From the NCBI GenBank assembly GCA_048884965.1, contig JBHLQH010000014.1:1-64000 (forward strand): a stretch of DNA of 64,000 bases. The letters run 5' to 3'. The notes under the pieces are model-generated. The model had not been told where the DNA came from. It saw only the letters and a list, made by a program, of their open reading frames with translations, and ran no database searches. Made by a program: the position numbers and the translations under genes. Position 1 is the first letter of the stretch; the number at the start of each line of letters is the position of its first letter. This DNA is from Candidatus Thorarchaeota archaeon. Its GTDB lineage: Archaea; Asgardarchaeota; Thorarchaeia; Thorarchaeales; Thorarchaeaceae. This document shows, piece by piece, positions 53,958-63,949 of the stretch.

Positions 53958-55679
53958 ATGCAAAAAAACCACCACATGATTATTGGAATAACTCTAATAC
54001 TTTTCATGATGATTTCTGTTGTTCCTTTGACTGTTCAACCAGTTTCAGTTCTGGTCGTCGAGGAAGTGTCTTTCACTCCATCTGAAACATATGAGTGGAC
54101 AGTTTTTGAAGAGAACATGAATGTCACAACCTTCGCTTCTCCCGATGGAAGCAAGGATGAGTTATGGCATTTTCTGAATTCAGCTGAAGAGAGCATCTAT
54201 GTTGAAATCTTCGGAATAAATAGTCCATACATACTTGATCTCATCCATGAGCTACATGATACCAAGCCATCTCTAGAGATGAAGTTCCTAATAGGTGAAG
54301 GTAGTATTGGATATTATTCTCAGAATGATTACGTAGCAAACAATCTCACTGAGCTCGGATACGAAGTGAAATGGACCAATGGAGATGATTTCACATATGC
54401 TCACCAAAAATTCGTGATAATAGACAATGAAACTACCCTTATACACTCAGGTAATTGGGCGAAAACCAGTTTTCCAGAAAGTAATGGAAAGGCAAATCGG
54501 GAGTGGAGTATCGCAATGACTAGCACAGCAGTTACTGAGTACTACAGGTCCGTCTTCGATGGGGACTGGATTAATGGTACATATTACAATGCCATAACCG
54601 ATGGAACTGGTGATCCTTTCACCTATACCTATTCAACTAGTACATATCCTCGTCCATTCGCAGAGGCGGGTAAATTCAGTGGCAATATTAAAGTTATACC
54701 CATCTTCAGTCCTGACACAAGCCTAGATGGTATCCTATACTGCATTAACGTGGCTCAAGCAACTCTTGATATCCAGATCCCCTATTTCACGAATGTCGGT
54801 GATGCAGGTGCAGTAGATCAAGTCCTAAATGCAATTCTCGCGGCTAAGGAAAGAGGCGTGACTGTTCGTGTCATCTCAGAGGAAGAATATGACTGGGATC
54901 TTGTGGAAGAGATGTTCCTTGAGCACGATATCCCAATTGTGTGGCAAGATACTCGATGGTTCACAGCTAACCACAACAAAGGTATCATCGCTGACGGGCG
55001 CATTGTCCTTGTTAGCAGTATCAACTATAGCGATGGAAGTATTTCAGAGAATCGTGAGGCTGGTGTGATTATAGAGCATGAAGGTATTGCTCAATGGTAT
55101 CAAGCAATATACGACTTTGATTGGGGGATCGCTGGTGGAGATTCCTTAGATGATGTAAACGTCTATTGGACTCCGAATATCCCTACTAGCACATCTGAAA
55201 TTAACGTGACTGTATATGGTCATATGCTATTTGAAGATACTATTGCTGAAGTAGAACTTGATGTTAAGGTAAATGATGGTGCATGGTCGAATAATACGAT
55301 TACTGCGAATGTCTACGAGTCAGCTGAAGAAGACCCTGAGAATTATTTCTATGTTATTCCTGCACAAGCTGACGGAACGAATATCACAGTTGTTGGTAGA
55401 ATACGTGTTGGTTCGACATGGCACACTGGAGTTCCTATGGTCATTCGAGTTAGAGATTCCATTGCTTCACCAACCTCTACTGATACAACACCTACTACTC
55501 CAACAACCACGACTGATCCTCTTGCTGAATTCCTTGCTGAATTTGGTATATGGATTGCAGTTGCTGGAATAGGTGTGATATGTGGCGGAGGAAGTGCAGT
55601 CGCATACAAGAAGGGAAAGATACCTGGAGTCAGCTCAAAGAAAACTACTCGTCGAAGTAGTAAGAAGAAGAAGAAGTAA
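53958..55679 (+). CDS. Extracellular, C-terminally anchored phospholipase D superfamily protein
   Basis: Two HKD motifs (HQKFVIID, HNKGIIAD), signal peptide, Thr-rich linker, TM, polybasic tail. Confidence 0.92.
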   Translation: MQKNHHMIIGITLILFMMISVVPLTVQPVSVLVVEEVSFTPSETYEWTVFEENMNVTTFASPDGSKDELWHFLNSAEESIYVEIFGINSPYILDLIHELHDTKPSLEMKFLIGEGSIGYYSQNDYVANNLTELGYEVKWTNGDDFTYAHQKFVIIDNETTLIHSGNWAKTSFPESNGKANREWSIAMTSTAVTEYYRSVFDGDWINGTYYNAITDGTGDPFTYTYSTSTYPRPFAEAGKFSGNIKVIPIFSPDTSLDGILYCINVAQATLDIQIPYFTNVGDAGAVDQVLNAILAAKERGVTVRVISEEEYDWDLVEEMFLEHDIPIVWQDTRWFTANHNKGIIADGRIVLVSSINYSDGSISENREAGVIIEHEGIAQWYQAIYDFDWGIAGGDSLDDVNVYWTPNIPTSTSEINVTVYGHMLFEDTIAEVELDVKVNDGAWSNNTITANVYESAEEDPENYFYVIPAQADGTNITVVGRIRVGSTWHTGVPMVIRVRDSIASPTSTDTTPTTPTTTTDPLAEFLAEFGIWIAVAGIGVICGGGSAVAYKKGKIPGVSSKKTTRRSSKKKKK

Positions 55680-55729: not shown

Positions 55730-56335
55730 CTATGCCATTTCACCTGCAGAACTCTCTGCCATTTGGGCAAATTTCTCACAGCTTTCTGCATCACGAAGTT
55801 CATTCCGCTTCTTATGCAATGCAGCTGCAATGCGATATGCTCTGGCAACCTCAGTCCATTTGGCTTGTGCATCCAGACAAAGTGCCAATGCCTTCCAAGT
55901 TTCCGGATTTTCTGAGTCGTATTTGAGTGACTCATTGAAGGCATCAATTGCTTCTTGAATTCGCATTAGGCTCTCCAATGCCCTTGCCTTCCTCTCAAAG
56001 AGAATAGCACTTGCTGGATTTGATTTCAGACCCGCCTTTGCTGCAGTCAGTGCTTCTTCAAATGCCCCTATTGTAAGAAATGCTTCTACTTTATTAGAGT
56101 GCGCTTCATCGCTATCCGGTTTTATCTTAATGGCTTTATCAAAGACAACTATAGCCTCTGATTGTTCTCCAATGTGAATATGAGCCAAACCCATCTCGTT
56201 CAAGACTTGGATTGAACTTGGATTGATTGTTAGAGCTTTTTTGAATTCCGCGATGGCCTTCTTATTCTCACCTCTAGCTCTAAAATTACGCGCTAGCTTC
56301 ACAATAGATTCAAAGTCTTGACCACTGGATGACAT
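55730..56335 (-). CDS. TPR repeat protein
   Basis: About five TPR repeats (AL..NP, AI..KP, SL..DS). Confidence 0.92.
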   Translation of the reverse strand: MSSSGQDFESIVKLARNFRARGENKKAIAEFKKALTINPSSIQVLNEMGLAHIHIGEQSEAIVVFDKAIKIKPDSDEAHSNKVEAFLTIGAFEEALTAAKAGLKSNPASAILFERKARALESLMRIQEAIDAFNESLKYDSENPETWKALALCLDAQAKWTEVARAYRIAAALHKKRNELRDAESCEKFAQMAESSAGEMA

Positions 56336-57010: not shown

Positions 57011-57388
57011 GTGAGAGTCTTGACTAATGAGAGCCAAACCCTTGAGGAATTGATGGCTCTCATTAGAGACTTCATTCGTGAGCGTGACTGGGAACATTTT
57101 CAGAAACCCGCAGCTTTAGCTATGTCTGCGTCAATAGAAATGGGTGAACTTTTAGAAAGATTTCAGTGGCTCACCAATGAGGAAATCTCTACTCTTCTCG
57201 AGGATGATAGGTATAAGGAGAGCATTGCTGATGAAATTGCTGATATCGTTATCTACATGATCCGGTTAGCTGATACGACAAACATAGGTCTGACTGATGC
57301 AATTCTAGACAAAATGAAAAAGAATGAAGGCAAGTATCCCGCAGACGAATGGAGAGGACGAATTCCCGATAAGGTCAGAAATCCATAG
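57011..57388 (+). CDS. MazG-like nucleotide pyrophosphohydrolase (dCTPase-type)
   Basis: FIRERDWEHFQKP...EMGELLERFQW...DEIADI...KMKKNEGKYP. Confidence 0.92.
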   Translation: MRVLTNESQTLEELMALIRDFIRERDWEHFQKPAALAMSASIEMGELLERFQWLTNEEISTLLEDDRYKESIADEIADIVIYMIRLADTTNIGLTDAILDKMKKNEGKYPADEWRGRIPDKVRNP

Positions 57389-58175
57389 CAAGGCGCTTGT
57401 AAAGTTCTGGTCTTCGATCGCTGAGTCGATGATTCCTTGGTGTGAGAGTCTTGTCATTAGCTTCGCTCAGATCGATATCGACATACTCGACCCCAATTGA
57501 TCCGTTCGGAATTCGGAGGAGGATTCTACCTTTTGTGTCAACAATCTGTGAGTTACCGGAGAATTCTAGGCCTCGTTCAGAGCCAACCCTGTTTGCTGTT
57601 GCTGAGAACACTCCATTCTCCAATGATCGTGTCTTCATTGCGGTTTGGCAGAATTCTAGTACGAGATTCGATGGATGAAGAATGACCTGTGCTCCTTTTA
57701 GTGTGAGAATACGTGCCATCTCAGGAAAAATCCAATCCCAGCAAATCATTACACCAAAATTAGAGTCTTGAAAGAGAACGACTGGGGGCTCATCATTTCC
57801 TGGAATGAACCAATCCTTCTCATCATTGAATAGATGTGCCTTTCGATATGTTGCTAGATGATTCCCATTTCCGAATATTCCTGCGGAATTGTAGAGGCTT
57901 GAGCCATCGTATTCACAAATACCTGAAACAACTAGCCTCTGATTTTTGGACCAAGCGAGCAATTCTTTTGAGAATGGACCTAGAGGTATCGTTTCGGCAT
58001 ATGCCAATACTTCTTCTTTCGATTCAAAGACATATCCAGAATTGGCAAGTTCTGGAAGAACGAGTACCTCAACTTCCTTTTTATCAGCATCGTTCAAAAT
58101 ATCTCTCAAGGTTTCCAGATTCTCTTCCAATGCTCCTATCTTTGGCTCCATCTGCCCAATACCAAGTCTAGTCAT
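57375..58175 (-). CDS. Carbon-nitrogen hydrolase (nitrilase superfamily)
   Basis: VLPELANSGY, YRKAHLF and ICWDWIFPE; Glu-Lys-Cys triad intact. Confidence 0.95.
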   Translation of the reverse strand: MTRLGIGQMEPKIGALEENLETLRDILNDADKKEVEVLVLPELANSGYVFESKEEVLAYAETIPLGPFSKELLAWSKNQRLVVSGICEYDGSSLYNSAGIFGNGNHLATYRKAHLFNDEKDWFIPGNDEPPVVLFQDSNFGVMICWDWIFPEMARILTLKGAQVILHPSNLVLEFCQTAMKTRSLENGVFSATANRVGSERGLEFSGNSQIVDTKGRILLRIPNGSIGVEYVDIDLSEANDKTLTPRNHRLSDRRPELYKRLAMDF

Positions 58176-58382: not shown

Positions 58383-59195
58383 CTATCTTTCTTGAATCTT
58401 CCTTCTAGTGCGAAGCATGAAATTATAGACTCGTTTCAACTGCTTCTCCTCATCATAGTGCCAGAGGGCTCGAAGGATCTTATGCCTATTCCTTAGCTGC
58501 TTCAATTTTCGGGATTGATTGGAGTATTGCTCTCGTAGTTTCTTTGTTGAAATCGATGTTTCTTTGATATGGGGTTCAATGGCCTTCAATTTACTTTCGA
58601 TTGATCCTACTTCATGTTCGATCATTCTTTTGTAGGCTTCTTGTATCAGAGACTCTCCTTGCTTATTGACTAATCTTAGTCGAGCCCATCTCTTTACATG
58701 AGCCCCTACACTCCGTGCTTCCTTTGCGAATTCGTTGGAGTCAAAGAGACTTGTGCCATTCTCTTGTGTGAAGTATCGAGCTTTCTCCTTTGCCCGCATG
58801 TGGGGCAGCAGAATCACACCAGGGCGAAGGCGAATGCAGGGTGTTCTATGAATGATTCTTTGCATCTTCTTCTTTTGTTGTTGGGTAGGCTTTTCAAAGG
58901 AGAAGACCACAATGCTATACATGGGTTCCTGATATGGTACCTTTTTCCTGGAATCTCCTTTTGGCATCTCTCGTGCTTTTCTGAATCTCACGTGTGGGAT
59001 ATCCTCTAAGAACTCAATGATTTTCCGCTTCTTCCTCTCAACAATGAAGATACCAGATCCTACCTTCTTGATTTCTGGCAGTTGCGGTAAATTCTTCTTG
59101 GGTGAGATCTCTCTCGAGAGAATGACTAGCCTGCTGCGTTGATCCAGACGCAATGACGGAATTTTCTGGTCATCGACTGCTTCGGAATCTGACAA
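58383..59195 (-). CDS. Highly basic protein with PaaX/ChrB-N/Cas2-like central domain and C-terminal coiled coil
   Basis: YSIVVFSFEKPTQQQKKKMQRIIHRTPCIRLRPGVILLP; strongly K/R-rich; GTGGTGG RBS. Confidence 0.75.
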   Translation of the reverse strand: MSDSEAVDDQKIPSLRLDQRSRLVILSREISPKKNLPQLPEIKKVGSGIFIVERKKRKIIEFLEDIPHVRFRKAREMPKGDSRKKVPYQEPMYSIVVFSFEKPTQQQKKKMQRIIHRTPCIRLRPGVILLPHMRAKEKARYFTQENGTSLFDSNEFAKEARSVGAHVKRWARLRLVNKQGESLIQEAYKRMIEHEVGSIESKLKAIEPHIKETSISTKKLREQYSNQSRKLKQLRNRHKILRALWHYDEEKQLKRVYNFMLRTRRKIQER

Positions 59196-59650: not shown

Positions 59651-60514
59651 TTAGAATAAACCGTTTTTCATTGCCGTTTGGCAATCGCAAGATGCGTCTT
59701 TTGGAATATGTTTGATCATCTCGAATATGAGTTTCTTCACCCGCTCGACATTCTGAGACATGGTCCTCAAAACGAGCTCGTGCGTAACTGGGCCTTCCTC
59801 TCCCTGCACGTCATAGTCTGTTGGCATCGACACATTGACGAAGCAAATTCCAGCTTCTCTTGCAAGTGAGGTTTCTGGATATGCTGTCATGCCTATCACG
59901 TCCCATCCATTACTGTTAAAGAACATAGACTCTGCACGTGATGAGAAACGAGGTCCATTAATGCAAACATAGGTGCCACCATTATGAGCTTTGTAGTTCA
60001 GCTTTCCAGCAGTTTCGAAAGCGACTTTCCTCAGTTCAGGACAAAATGGTTCTGCAAATGGCAAATGACCGATTGTTCCTCCTTCGAAAAAAGTATCCTT
60101 TCTCTGACCAAATGTTCTATCGAATATCTGATCTGCCATGACAAACTCACCTAGTTTGATCTTCTCAGGCTGGAGGCTTCCAGTTGCTGCAGGTGAGATT
60201 ATCCTCTTCACACCCAATGCTTTCATTCCCCAAATGTTCGCTCGATAATTGATTGCATGAGGCGGTATGATATGTCCTCGACCATGTCTGGCTAGGAACG
60301 CGATACTTCGTCCTTCTATCTTTCCAATTATGAAATTGTCTGATGGAGCTCCATATGGAGTAAATACCTTGATCTCTATAGGATCCTTAATGACTTCTGG
60401 ATCGTAGTATCCGCTACCTCCGAGTAACCCAATCTCGATGGGAAGCAGTGCTTCCAGTTCATCTCTTTTGCTTCTATCAAGTGGTACAAAATCCAACTTT
60501 GCTTCAAATGCCAT
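59651..60514 (-). CDS. mtnP: 5'-methylthioadenosine phosphorylase (MTAP/PNP family)
   Basis: GGSG, TPYGAPS, LARHGRGH...INYRANIW, GPRFSSRAES, IGMT, TDYD. Confidence 0.95.
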   Translation of the reverse strand: MAFEAKLDFVPLDRSKRDELEALLPIEIGLLGGSGYYDPEVIKDPIEIKVFTPYGAPSDNFIIGKIEGRSIAFLARHGRGHIIPPHAINYRANIWGMKALGVKRIISPAATGSLQPEKIKLGEFVMADQIFDRTFGQRKDTFFEGGTIGHLPFAEPFCPELRKVAFETAGKLNYKAHNGGTYVCINGPRFSSRAESMFFNSNGWDVIGMTAYPETSLAREAGICFVNVSMPTDYDVQGEEGPVTHELVLRTMSQNVERVKKLIFEMIKHIPKDASCDCQTAMKNGLF

Positions 60515-60613: not shown

Positions 60614-61294
60614 TTATTGTGTGATTCTCCAGATCTTGTCCAGTGGGTATTGGATCCTCCCAAGGTATCCCATGTGGGCTTTGATCTTGGAGAGATTCTC
60701 ATCTGAGAGTACTATGTTGTTGTATTCTCGGAGATGCTTTTTGACCTCAGGTGTGCTCATCTCCTTAACCTTCTCACCTTCAAAGATCTTCATGATGAGG
60801 GCTGATAGGTCTTCAAAGAAGTTCCATGGCCATATCTCCCACGCCCAAGTGACCTCTACTCCATAATAATCAGGAACGAATTTAGAGCCTGCAATATGCA
60901 TGAGCGTGGCTGTCTTGATCTCAGATGGCTTTCCTGTTTCTTGGATATGTCTGACAGCAGTCATGAGGCTCTCACCAGTATCTGTAATATCATCAACAAC
61001 AAGAACCTTCATTCCTTCAACATCCCCTACTAGAGGGCATGAGAGCTGTGCCTTGCCATCTCTTGTAGCAGTGACTCCCCAGTGATCGACCTTAACTGAA
61101 AATAGATTCTTCACACCCAACAAGTCACATTGAATTCTTGCATGTACCCAACCTCCACGAGCAATTCCAATGATTGCTTCAGGCCGCCAGTTAGACTCCT
61201 TGATCTTATGGGCAGTCTGATAGGCATAGTTCGCAATATCATCATAATCCAGCACGTAGCAGAGAGGTCCTTTGAGCTCCATTGTATCCACCAA
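60614..61294 (-). CDS. Type I purine phosphoribosyltransferase (archaeal HGPRT-like)
   Basis: IARGGW, VLVVDDITDTGES PRPP loop, WEIWPW. Confidence 0.92.
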   Translation of the reverse strand: MVDTMELKGPLCYVLDYDDIANYAYQTAHKIKESNWRPEAIIGIARGGWVHARIQCDLLGVKNLFSVKVDHWGVTATRDGKAQLSCPLVGDVEGMKVLVVDDITDTGESLMTAVRHIQETGKPSEIKTATLMHIAGSKFVPDYYGVEVTWAWEIWPWNFFEDLSALIMKIFEGEKVKEMSTPEVKKHLREYNNIVLSDENLSKIKAHMGYLGRIQYPLDKIWRITQ

Positions 61295-61359: not shown

Positions 61360-62208
61360 CTAGTTATTGTCAATCCAAAGTAAGCGAACAGAATCGAATT
61401 CGCCAGGTAGATATTCTATCTTGACCTTGACACAGTCCCCTTCCTTAACTTTTCGAGGTATTTCAAATGGTAAAAACAGCTCCTTCCATCCATCTTCCAT
61501 ATCCAAGATAATTTCGTCATCAAGCGAAGCTTGGAACATCCCGCACAGTCCATGAGCAATTCCATCCTGTTTGATATCAAAGGTTAGTGTCTTTCGAACA
61601 CGGTAATCATCATCTAACGATCGGAGGTCAAACTTTACGATTTCTTCTATATCCGACAGCTCTATCCTCTCTTCTGCTCCTACCGTCTGAGGTCGTGATG
61701 GAAATCGAAGATCTTGGAAAGCAAAACGACTCAACATACTTTCGCTCTGACTCAATATTCCAAATATCTGGACTGACTTAGGAAGGAGAATTCCTTCTGG
61801 TTTCAAAACGTGTTTTGTGATATGAAGCGATGCAGGAATCTGCTGCTCGATGAGCATCATTGAGGAAAGCATCTCACAAAGAACTATGTCATACTTCTCA
61901 TGAGGCTTGAACTCAGAGAAGTGCATTGTCTTGAATTCTATCGCGCTATCTAGCTTGTTGTGTTCTGCAGCTTTTTTCGCATAGAGAATAGAGTCTTCAT
62001 GCACATCGATTGCAGTTACTTTCGCAGCTCCTGCTTTCGCTGCCAGCAATGCAAGAATTCCAGTTCCCGTTCCGATATCCGCAACCTTCATATCAGGTTC
62101 AACTATTCGTTCAATCACCTGAGCAAATTTCTGAATCCGCTTTTTTTGACTAAGCAAGCTTATTGCTCCAAGAAGATCGAATGGTGTTGCGTATTTCCTA
62201 CCTGACAT
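61360..62208 (-). CDS. Class I SAM methyltransferase with PRMT-like architecture
   Basis: VADIGTGTGILALLAAKAGA, DIVLCEMLSSMMLIE, LKPEGILLP, C-terminal beta-barrel-like region. Confidence 0.88.
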   Translation of the reverse strand: MSGRKYATPFDLLGAISLLSQKKRIQKFAQVIERIVEPDMKVADIGTGTGILALLAAKAGAAKVTAIDVHEDSILYAKKAAEHNKLDSAIEFKTMHFSEFKPHEKYDIVLCEMLSSMMLIEQQIPASLHITKHVLKPEGILLPKSVQIFGILSQSESMLSRFAFQDLRFPSRPQTVGAEERIELSDIEEIVKFDLRSLDDDYRVRKTLTFDIKQDGIAHGLCGMFQASLDDEIILDMEDGWKELFLPFEIPRKVKEGDCVKVKIEYLPGEFDSVRLLWIDNN

Positions 62209-62262: not shown

Positions 62263-63477
62263 GTGCCGAAGAGGTCTATTGAGAGGAAAAACCACGATTC
62301 TGGAGAACAAATCGATTTGACTGACGAGAGAATCCGAAAAGCAATAGAAGCAATCGAAGACTCATGCAATGAAGAAGCCATATCAATCCTCGAACCGATT
62401 GCCAAGGATTTGGATCCCGATCCGGATGCCCTCGTCTATCTTGGACTTGCCTATATTCAAGCTGAGCGTCCTGTAGATGCAGTCAAAGTCCTTCGACAAG
62501 CACAAGAGATGGTAGAGGATCATTGTGTACTGGCTCTTTTCCTGGGTCGTGCTTTGAGAAGTCTAGGGAAATATGAAGAAGCTGAGGATGAACTTCGCCG
62601 AGCAATTGAGCTGGAGCCAGAAGATCCAGAAGCCTGGATCGAACTTGGAAAGCTTTTGTATTCCAAGGGGAATTATGGAGAAGCAGCTCGCATCATGGAT
62701 GAAGCAATCATTCTATTCCCTGAGGATCTTTCGCTTCGAGGGACACTTGCTCTTGCGCTGTATAAGCTGGGCGATTTCACCCAAGCTACAAATGAATGGG
62801 CAAACCTTCACAAGTTAGATCCTGACCTCATGGCTGCAATGACGAATCTTGCATATCTACTTCTTTTGCAAGATAGAACCAATGAAGCACTTCCGCTTGT
62901 TGAAGAGGCCTACAAGAGAGACTCTGAGGATTATCGTGCGTTGGTTTTGAAGGGTATGGTTTCATTGACAGCTGATGAGAAAGACAAGGCGAAAATCTAT
63001 TTCGAGAAGATCTTAGAGAACCACTCAGATAATGTTGAAGCACTTTCGCGCCTTGCCGTTATCGAATATGAGAACGGGGATGCTGAGAAATGTACCGCTC
63101 TTCTTGATTACGCTGAGAAACAGATTAACTCAGAACAGGAATGTTGGAGGGGTCTCTGTTTTGCCTATTCACGGTTGGGCCTTCAAGACAAGCATATTGA
63201 ATGCTTAAAGAATTGGACTGAACAAGATCCCGGAGCAGCAGCACCTTGGGTTTCACTCGCAATTGAATATGATCGAGAGGGAAGAAAAGACTTGGCTTTG
63301 GGTGCTTGGCGGAAAGCAATGGAGTTACGGGGATATATCCGAATTCATTGTGCCAATTGCAGGCAGAGTATCAAGTTTGAGATAACCAATGCCTCCGCAT
63401 TCGAACCATATGAACCGCAGAAGTGCGACAATTGTGGGACAAAGATTGAGATGCCTATCGGCCTTCTAGCCCTCTGA
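62263..63477 (+). CDS. TPR protein with C-terminal zinc ribbon
   Basis: Multiple TPR repeats; CANC...CDNC. Confidence 0.9.
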   Translation: MPKRSIERKNHDSGEQIDLTDERIRKAIEAIEDSCNEEAISILEPIAKDLDPDPDALVYLGLAYIQAERPVDAVKVLRQAQEMVEDHCVLALFLGRALRSLGKYEEAEDELRRAIELEPEDPEAWIELGKLLYSKGNYGEAARIMDEAIILFPEDLSLRGTLALALYKLGDFTQATNEWANLHKLDPDLMAAMTNLAYLLLLQDRTNEALPLVEEAYKRDSEDYRALVLKGMVSLTADEKDKAKIYFEKILENHSDNVEALSRLAVIEYENGDAEKCTALLDYAEKQINSEQECWRGLCFAYSRLGLQDKHIECLKNWTEQDPGAAAPWVSLAIEYDREGRKDLALGAWRKAMELRGYIRIHCANCRQSIKFEITNASAFEPYEPQKCDNCGTKIEMPIGLLAL

Positions 63478-63484
63478 TGGAGAC

Positions 63485-63949
63485 TTGAGCATGTCTTCTC
63501 GAAGGTACCCTGAGTTTCCTATACCTGGTGTGGGAGGAGTTGTATTCGGCACGAAAGGTGTTCTTCTTGTGCGAAGAGATAAGGAACCCGGAAAAGGTCT
63601 CTGGAGTATTCCTGGGGGCGGCGTTGAAGTAGGAGAAACTCAACAAGAAGCGTTAGTTCGAGAAGTCCTAGAAGAAACCGGAGTCCGATGTAATGTCCTT
63701 CAATTCATAAGTACAGCTGATATCATCTTTCGTGATAAGAATGGAGATATTGAATATCATTACATTTTGAACCATTACCTAGCTGAGGCGTTATCCAGCA
63801 GTATCAGACCAGAAACACCAGATGCAGAAGTTGGATGGTTTGCTCTAGATCAACTCCCCATAAGCGATATGCCTGAAGCCATAATAGATATCGTCAACAA
63901 AGCTAGTGCAATTCAAAATCCTATGCAAAAAGGCATCCGAGAAACTTAA
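63485..63949 (+). CDS. NUDIX hydrolase (ADP-ribose pyrophosphatase-like)
   Basis: GGGVEVGETQQEALVREVLEETG Nudix box. Confidence 0.95.
   Translation: MSMSSRRYPEFPIPGVGGVVFGTKGVLLVRRDKEPGKGLWSIPGGGVEVGETQQEALVREVLEETGVRCNVLQFISTADIIFRDKNGDIEYHYILNHYLAEALSSSIRPETPDAEVGWFALDQLPISDMPEAIIDIVNKASAIQNPMQKGIRET

Follow-up and report, generated by a model that had tools for sequence, protein, structure and literature searches.

The 64,000-nucleotide stretch analysed here, which we call the window, covers positions 1 to 64,000 of the forward strand of contig JBHLQH010000014.1 from a Candidatus Thorarchaeota archaeon (assembly GCA_048884965.1). Near its end lies a gene for a compact methyltransferase with the fold of the protein arginine methyltransferases (PRMTs). 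In the list of open reading frames (ORFs) it occupies 61360..62208 on the minus strand, starts with ATG and encodes 282 amino acids. N-terminal helices and a Rossmann domain that binds S-adenosylmethionine (SAM) span residues 12-143 (61780..62175, minus strand), as judged from the secondary structure of a model and from matches to generic class I methyltransferase families in Pfam. This half contains motif I, VADIGTGTG, at residues 42-50 (62059-62085, minus), and the double-E loop CEMLSSMMLIE at residues 111-121 (61846..61878, minus), in which E112 and E121 stand nine residues apart. The other half, residues 145-282 (61363..61776, minus), is a beta-barrel domain recognised from model strands and from full-length structural alignment to PRMTs. 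Within it are a shortened dimerisation-arm region at about residues 155-181 and a DGW loop, D239-G240-W241, at 61486-61494 on the minus strand. An earlier interpretation made from the letters alone (the sequence-only reading) had proposed a minimal PRMT-like enzyme from a set of short strings in this ORF, and every one of them is present in the translation, including LKPEGILLP (residues 135-143), GIAHGLCGMF (216-225), DGWKELFLPF (239-248) and VKEGDCVKVKI (254-264).

Conservation was assessed by aligning 32 orthologues (45-59% identity), and a column is called invariant on that basis. In the catalytic loop C111, E112, M113, L114, S115, E121, Q122 and Q123 are invariant, and the other invariant columns include P9, F10, R24, G46, G48, G50, D239, G240 and W241. 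HMMER aligned CEMLSSMMLIE on SEIFGTMMLGE of T. brucei PRMT7 and SEWMGYCLFYE of rat PRMT1, confirming the proposal that it is a double-E loop of the PRMT type. Because key residues of the quoted motifs are invariant in the 32 orthologues and CEMLSSMMLIE aligns with PRMT double-E loops, the resemblance goes beyond chance. In a wider alignment of 66 PRMT-like rows, E112 was kept in 64, E121 in 63 and R24 in 64; position 68 was acidic, with D in all seven rows of the Thorarchaeia family and D or E in the remaining rows. R24 also aligned with the conserved arginine of PRMT7, PRMT9 and PRMT8 in PDB sequence and profile alignments. The N-terminal helix that closes the SAM pocket of PRMTs carries a YFxxY motif; an invariant P9-F10..L13 stands where that motif would be, and since the PDB alignments begin at residue 8-19 the motif itself is unaligned. 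As for the suggestion that DGW is the counterpart of the THW loop of PRMTs, W241 pairs with the W of 'HW' in PRMT8 and PRMT9 and with that of THW in PRMT3 rows (family profile and 66-row alignment), and the two residues before it differ.

Database searches with the protein gave a consistent picture at the level of the PDB. Among the 60 phmmer matches listed, 58 were named arginine methyltransferases of eukaryotes, the best being T. brucei PRMT7 (5eku, 6e-14); the other two were one PrmA and one PRMT9-like chain, 8rbk. A profile of the family matched PRMT9-like 8rbk at 1.6e-28, 7rbq and 6pdm at 2e-27 and PRMT7 4c4a at 1.7e-27, and it aligned with PRMT8 4x41 (1.3e-24) over positions 19-270, placing the tryptophan of DGW opposite that of 'THW'. 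In Pfam only generic class I methyltransferase models matched, the best being PrmA (PF06325, 2.3e-16). This match, together with the name 'L11 methyltransferase' that NCBI gives to at least 19 of the 120 listed homologues and the name 'predicted RNA methylase' used by JGI, would fit an enzyme with a non-guanidino target, either a lysine or the N-terminus of a ribosomal protein, or RNA. We consider such a target improbable. The PrmA match spans only residues 30-122, in the Rossmann core, aligned with profile positions 153-244 of 296, and leaves the N-terminal substrate domain uncovered; no NCBIfam model attained its cut-off for the 282-aa protein: prmA TIGR00406 scored 54.4 bits where 183.15 are required, and the remaining prmA models were far below theirs too. 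PrmA appeared just once among the 60 listed PDB matches, the structural matches listed were all PRMTs and the glutamates that hold arginine are invariant.

The structural matches come from an AlphaFold (AF2) model, which was built on the 32-sequence alignment and reached a mean predicted local distance difference test score (pLDDT) of 91.2 and a predicted template-modelling score (pTM) of 0.87. Its strands run from residue 145 to residue 279, so the beta-barrel without which the sequence-only reading would have failed is present in the model. With Foldseek, all matches listed from the PDB were PRMTs, with template-modelling (TM) scores of 0.72-0.82; the best was T. brucei PRMT7 4m38 (E 2.6e-24, TM 0.82 by query). 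VIA-align, run on Foldseek's top 1000, likewise returned PRMTs for 50 of the 50 matches listed, with Z of 27.4-28.2 and root mean square deviations of 2.3-3.2 Å over 267-281 of the 282 residues. The top PRMTs were tied (CARM1 and PRMT1, 2, 3, 5, 6, 7 and 8), and the comparison with PRMT1, PRMT5 and PRMT7 that had been proposed thus gave full-length matches. Among the matches listed, only PRMTs fit the predicted structure over its full length, beta-barrel included. To compare dimerisation arms, we counted the residues between P143 of motif III and D192 in the 66-row alignment, a stretch that spans the arm. It has 50 residues in 7 of 7 Thorarchaeia rows and a median of 47 in the compact sister clade described below (range 45-61), against a median of 62 in other prokaryotic rows (range 50-71), 62-63 in eukaryotic PRMT3 rows and 63 in fusions of a PRMT core with tetratricopeptide repeats (TPRs). 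The model has just a 5-residue helix in the arm region.

We then examined how the gene is distributed. A word-indexed search found 312 relatives, of which 120 were listed at 46-100% identity; the 100% match is a 202-aa fragment of the same protein. Named relatives among the matches listed are from Thorarchaeota, plus one 'Promethearchaeota', and JGI names three of them (P0015, P0049 and P0116) protein arginine methyltransferases. The source genome, which is 95.7% complete with 7.2% contamination (G000), has one copy; two other matches in it cover only the Rossmann part (E ~5e-6), and searches with PF22528, PF05185 and the protein itself found no other PRMT there. A look for RNA data sets listed none with this DNA; the four sequencing runs that came up are all sediment DNA from a single study, and two of them may be where the stretch comes from. 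Among 201 Asgard genomes, a full-length or nearly full-length match was present in 40 of 43 genomes from the family to which the window belongs (f1) and in the single genome of its sister family (f2). Two of the 40 are exceptions in form, a match split in two frames (G155) and a cut one (G173). Of the three f1 genomes that have no match, one (G185) has its TPR orthologue cut by a contig end where the enzyme gene is expected, and the other two (G152 and G176) are 81% and 74% complete. Outside f1 and f2 matches cover only the Rossmann part, with one exception: a 2-kb contig of G100 gave a partial match at 1.1e-25 (positions 50-270). Within the 201 sampled Asgard genomes, the family is therefore restricted to Thorarchaeia.

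Three further observations concern Asgard homologues. The split orthologue, at G155:C4:324415-325195, is matched by positions 19-198 in one frame and 180-278 in another, so that the pieces overlap; a frameshift or a sequencing error may be the cause. Of 400 Asgard genomes, three, from families f29 and f30, had a PRMT_C match above the Pfam cut-off, and the genes next to it are unrelated to the neighbours of the Thorarchaeia gene. Asgard proteins of 548-596 aa that match the Rossmann part of the profile (L034-L038) were rejected as relatives, since in them a class I methyltransferase domain is joined to a CdhD-like one, and in two of the five a Fer4 (4Fe-4S ferredoxin) domain is present as well; they are unrelated to the PRMT-like family.

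Beyond Thorarchaeia, an exhaustive search of representative proteins gave 6695 proteins at E <= 0.001 and only 7 at E <= 1e-30. Below these seven are many proteins of ~300 aa matched nearly full length at 1e-24 to 1e-16, and Pfam PRMT_C was present in 16 of the 20 of them that were scanned; names attached to some of the relatives are Sigynarchaeota, Polyangiaceae, 'Ca. Hatepunaea', Algibacter and Bathyarchaeota. Most of the Atlas clusters are bacterial and of ~300 aa; one is viral, and one, from cyanobacteria, has the core fused to TPRs. Longer proteins were searched as well, with 27 matches, the best being TPR+PRMT_C fusions, followed by plant, fungal and animal PRMT3-type proteins; the fusions P0280 (1.4e-27), P0282 and P0283 rank among the top four, and these three have E values of 1e-27 to 6e-20 and 88-90% coverage. 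In a FastTree analysis of 165 rows, the Thorarchaeia proteins formed one clade (99*) inside a starred compact clade of 25 rows (99*), and eukaryotic PRMT3-type proteins were separate (100*). A quick IQ-TREE run on 66 rows under LG+C20 with posterior mean site frequencies (PMSF) again recovered the Thorarchaeia clade (99*) with compact proteins (support 93), and grouped the eukaryotic PRMT3-type rows at 92 with a Sigynarchaeota protein and four other rows. When eight long rows were dropped (58 rows, quick IQ-TREE), the seven Thorarchaeia rows were held together at 99* and with 12 compact rows at 96*. One compact row is from Bathyarchaeota. A host search for the compact clade, which used a 3-sequence alignment and so represents one subclade, placed full-length close relatives in three CPR (candidate phyla radiation) bacteria, three Planctomycetota and two Gammaproteobacteria (8 loci). 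One member of the compact clade, the metagenome protein P0128 (577 aa), is a tandem of two compact PRMT-like modules (residues 9-283 and 316-567).

These trees bear on the idea that the enzyme is an Asgard forerunner of eukaryotic PRMTs, that is, a vertically inherited eukaryotic signature protein. The host is an Asgard archaeon, the 58 named PRMTs among the 60 listed PDB matches are eukaryotic, and a Sigynarchaeota PRMT_C protein outside the Thorarchaeia family (P0132) is the one that groups with eukaryotic PRMT3 at 92, so that part of the Asgard PRMT-like genes may be closer to those of eukaryotes. We nevertheless regard this descent as very unlikely for the present family. Its full-length orthologues are confined to Thorarchaeia among the Asgard genomes sampled, in the trees its clade joins compact proteins of bacteria and Bathyarchaeota, and forcing it together with eukaryotes costs 37.5 log-likelihood units (lnL; p-AU 0.04 in the approximately unbiased, AU, test). 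Among the matches listed, the family profile scored 87-154 bits to prokaryotic relatives compared with 56-80 bits to eukaryotic PRMT3, and it gave ~90 bits at most to one PRMT core in the PDB. Moreover, a published sequence analysis (PMC3417536), the only printed statement on their origin that the literature search turned up, derives eukaryotic PRMTs from a bacterial radiation, from bacterial peptide methylases. From these alignments and trees, the family appears to form the Thorarchaeia branch of a prokaryotic clade whose PRMT-like members are short (~275-300 aa), and it appears not to be a direct forerunner of the eukaryotic enzymes. The sequence-only reading had called the protein an archaeal relative of eukaryotic PRMTs and asked for a phylogeny with archaeal and bacterial PRMT-like proteins. 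By fold it is a true PRMT homologue and prokaryotic relatives do exist, but the trees give it no special kinship to eukaryotes, since it groups with the compact prokaryotic proteins and not with eukaryotic PRMT3, with the AU test marginal.

Next, we considered the genes around the enzyme. A 404-aa protein with TPR matches in Pfam is encoded at 62263..63477 on the plus strand, divergently from the enzyme gene, and ends in a C-terminal CxxC...CxxC zinc ribbon (63349-63435, plus); it is a candidate partner or adaptor. A Nudix hydrolase (63485..63949, plus; NCBIfam Nudix-family matches below cut-off) lies 3' of it. On the other side, co-oriented with the enzyme gene and downstream of it, are a phosphoribosyltransferase (PRTase) at 60614..61294 (minus; Pfam Pribosyltran 1.9e-16) and an S-methyl-5'-thioadenosine phosphorylase (MTAP) at 59651..60514 (minus; TIGR01694, 282.8 bits against a cut-off of 274.85), which bears out both assignments made earlier. 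Farther away are a basic 270-aa protein (58383-59195, minus; no Pfam or NCBIfam family), a nitrilase-type CN-hydrolase (57375-58175, minus) and a MazG-like pyrophosphohydrolase (57011-57388, plus). The last two genes converge, and their 3' ends overlap by 14 bases. The window also holds a PLD-like protein at 53958-55679 and, at 55730-56335, a second TPR protein.

To see which neighbours persist, we compared one genome per genus from 17 genera, 16 in f1 and one in f2; these genomes are kin, and synteny alone is a weak argument among them. The TPR gene was back-to-back with the enzyme gene in all 17 genera. Its f2 orthologue, 24% identical, keeps both the position and the C-terminal zinc ribbon, whose cysteines (C363, C366, C388 and C391) are invariant in 15 sequences. 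AF2 modelled the TPR protein (pLDDT 91.0) as 20 helices plus a small beta ribbon. The PRTase occurred in 16 of the 17 loci, the f2 locus being the one that lacks it; MTAP was found in 15, in three of which it lies 1.6-4 kb from the PRTase, the Nudix gene was kept at its position in 15 and the CN-hydrolase occurred in 12. Beside the f2 orthologue the PRTase-MTAP pair is missing and the TPR gene is retained. The best-conserved neighbour is therefore the divergent TPR/zinc-ribbon gene, not MTAP, and the TPR link not only outlasts the MTAP link but has a parallel in distant PRMT clades, where the association of TPR and PRMT recurs as a gene fusion.

It had been suggested that the linkage to MTAP may be functional, 5'-methylthioadenosine (MTA) being a known PRMT5 inhibitor. 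Methyltransferases, though, release S-adenosylhomocysteine (SAH) and not MTA, which arises from other SAM reactions, and MTAP with a PRTase makes up an adenine-salvage pair that needs no third partner. The PRTase is probably a salvage partner of MTAP. As the pair explains itself and is not kept in f2, we did not adopt the MTAP link. Nor did we adopt the basic protein at 58383 as a substrate, because it has no recognisable family and is poorly conserved: weak homologues (27-39% identity) occur in 6 of 17 loci, no Pfam or NCBIfam family and no PDB relative below E 0.69 were found for it, and its sequence contains no RGG motif.

The eight bacterial loci of the compact clade (L044-L051) have a different setting. 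In five of the eight, from CPR bacteria and Gammaproteobacteria, two conserved genes of unassigned family (~265-278 aa and ~95 aa) lie 3' of the PRMT-like gene, and a histidine kinase then follows in three; no TPR/zinc-ribbon neighbour was found in any of the eight. Some of the genes seen there would fit a small-molecule guanidino N-methyltransferase, which would use the same double-E pocket on free arginine, agmatine or a related metabolite. An NNMT-family small-molecule methyltransferase stands beside the homologue in L049, a short arm would matter less with a small substrate, and at the Thorarchaeia locus MTAP and the CN-hydrolase (sub-threshold AguB match, 113.8 against 410 bits) could relate to polyamine metabolism. 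Chemistry of this kind would also have a PRMT-fold counterpart if, as we presume, the enzyme SznE has that fold. SznE/StzE of streptozotocin biosynthesis methylates free L-arginine (PMC11705231), a precedent for such a substrate. Still, the CN-hydrolase scores best as an archaeal nitrilase, below cut-off, and neither a pyruvoyl arginine decarboxylase (PvlArgDC) nor a homologue of the bacterial cassette protein was found in the 95.7%-complete source genome. No biosynthetic cluster surrounds the gene in the window, and the neighbour that is conserved best encodes a TPR protein, of a type that serves as a protein-protein interaction module. We therefore judge a small-molecule substrate to be unlikely, although it keeps an appreciable chance.

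Taken together, the analyses show the fold, the motifs for SAM binding and two conserved glutamates. On balance, we lean towards the view that the gene encodes a compact PRMT-fold, SAM-dependent N-methyltransferase whose acceptor would be an arginine in a protein or peptide, and that it belongs to the Thorarchaeia branch of a short prokaryotic clade and is not a direct eukaryotic forerunner. In such an enzyme E112 and E121 of the double-E loop would hold the guanidinium group against the methyl of SAM, and a guanidino nitrogen would be methylated, as in the established PRMT mechanism. The choice of a protein or peptide arginine as acceptor follows the gene context, in which the divergent TPR/zinc-ribbon protein may recruit or present the substrate, by analogy with the PRMT cores fused to TPRs in some bacteria and in PRMT9.

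Several findings speak against this view. Within the protein, PRMT_C (PF22528) of Pfam gave no match to the 282-aa protein at E <= 0.01 and had no hit anywhere in the source genome, and PRMT5_C (PF17286) and PRMT5 (PF05185) were below their cut-offs, at 23.5 against 30.3 bits and 16.8 against 22.9 bits, respectively. The T-H of THW is replaced by an invariant D-G in the Thorarchaeia family, and the arm region is ~12 residues shorter than in other PRMTs, so the canonical PRMT dimer may not form. With regard to the acceptor, a pyruvoyl arginine decarboxylase directly adjoins the homologue in two of the eight bacterial loci (L050 and L045), which belong to a sister subclade, an arrangement that suits a small-molecule substrate. 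TPR genes abound in the source genome, the one at 55730-56335 being another example. As for descent, the eukaryotes in the trees are 6-7 PRMT3-type sequences only and the trees are unrooted, and the AU test against a forced clade of Thorarchaeia and eukaryotes is marginal (p-AU 0.0398, the forced tree being 37.5 lnL worse). The RG-rich tails considered below as possible substrates also occur in Asgard families without the enzyme, namely in 7 of 7 loci of f12, 2 of 2 of f4 and single loci of f6 and f18.

These tails came from a genome scan, in which 3 of 8637 ORFs had at least five RG or GR within 30 aa: two proteins resembling single-stranded DNA-binding proteins (SSBs) with an oligonucleotide/oligosaccharide-binding (OB) fold, and one RNA polymerase subunit. 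The SSB-like proteins, of 197 aa (C12:86107-86700) and 179 aa (C10:42038-42577), have long Gly/Arg-rich C-terminal tails of the RGG type; they match PF21473 at 2.4e-14, and their nearest PDB chains are Sulfolobus SSB 1o7i (4.9e-14) and human SOSS-B1. Because such tails occur without the enzyme, there is no co-occurrence signal for an SSB substrate, and no Tudor domain (PF00567), a reader of methyl-arginine, was found in the source genome. The tails are a candidate substrate by motif only, and we offer them as a lead. More speculatively still, the enzyme and its neighbour might form a two-gene arginine-methylation module, in which a minimal PRMT core guided by a separate TPR/zinc-ribbon adaptor, the split counterpart of TPR-fused PRMTs such as PRMT9, would methylate RG-rich tails of nucleic-acid-binding proteins, for example those with an SSB-like OB fold. 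The full scheme seems doubtful to us. If it were true, an Asgard archaeon would use arginine methylation of proteins, of the PRMT type, as a functioning regulatory mark.

Arginine methylation by PRMTs is generally regarded as a feature of eukaryotes, and the literature searched yielded no study of a PRMT-like enzyme from Asgard archaea. The sequence and structure comparisons indicate that the gene encodes a real, conserved and mis-named compact variant of the PRMT family, with a predicted activity on arginine. This corrects the widespread database name 'L11 methyltransferase', for which the automatic JGI names already substitute PRMT in some orthologues. A single-copy, conserved PRMT-fold enzyme with a fixed TPR/zinc-ribbon neighbour is present in nearly all sampled Thorarchaeia. 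Because it keeps the arginine-holding glutamates, is conserved and has this fixed neighbour, the enzyme is a concrete and easily expressed test case for the archaeal use of PRMT chemistry on proteins and for the minimal size of a working PRMT core. On present evidence, the family leaves the picture of the origin of eukaryotic PRMTs unchanged.

Finally, we compared the Thorarchaeia protein with known systems. With PrmA it shares the class I Rossmann core, but it has no match to the N-terminal, L11-binding substrate domain of PrmA, and its C-terminal half is a PRMT beta-barrel. Eukaryotic PRMTs (PRMT1/3/8, CARM1, PRMT2, PRMT6, PRMT7 and the catalytic module of PRMT5) have the same Rossmann and beta-barrel architecture and can be superposed on the model; motif I, the acidic post-I residue, the arginine of the N-terminal helix, the double-E loop, LKPxGxxxP and the tryptophan of the THW loop are common to both. 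The Thorarchaeia protein differs from them in its length of 282 aa without an N-terminal extension, its ~20% identity, DGW in place of THW, an arm ~12 residues shorter, the lack of a PRMT_C match and its position apart from PRMT3 in the trees.

PRMT9, which presumably carries N-terminal TPRs, and the bacterial TPR-PRMT fusions (P0280, P0282, P0283, P0162 and the cyanobacterial Atlas cluster) resemble the Thorarchaeia locus in the association of a PRMT core with TPRs, and PRMT9-like chains are the best PDB matches of the family profile. At the Thorarchaeia locus, by contrast, the TPR protein, a putative partner, is encoded by a separate, divergent gene and has a zinc ribbon, and the fusions lie in a different tree clade. 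The compact prokaryotic PRMT-like proteins (P0154, P0167, P0257, P0206 and others) are 25-32% identical to the Thorarchaeia protein and lack the DGW tryptophan, and their bacterial members belong to a different cassette without the TPR/zinc-ribbon neighbour. In the trees, however, they share a clade with it (96-99*), their arm is equally short (median 47 versus 50) and, as in the Thorarchaeia protein, the double E and the Q that follows are conserved.

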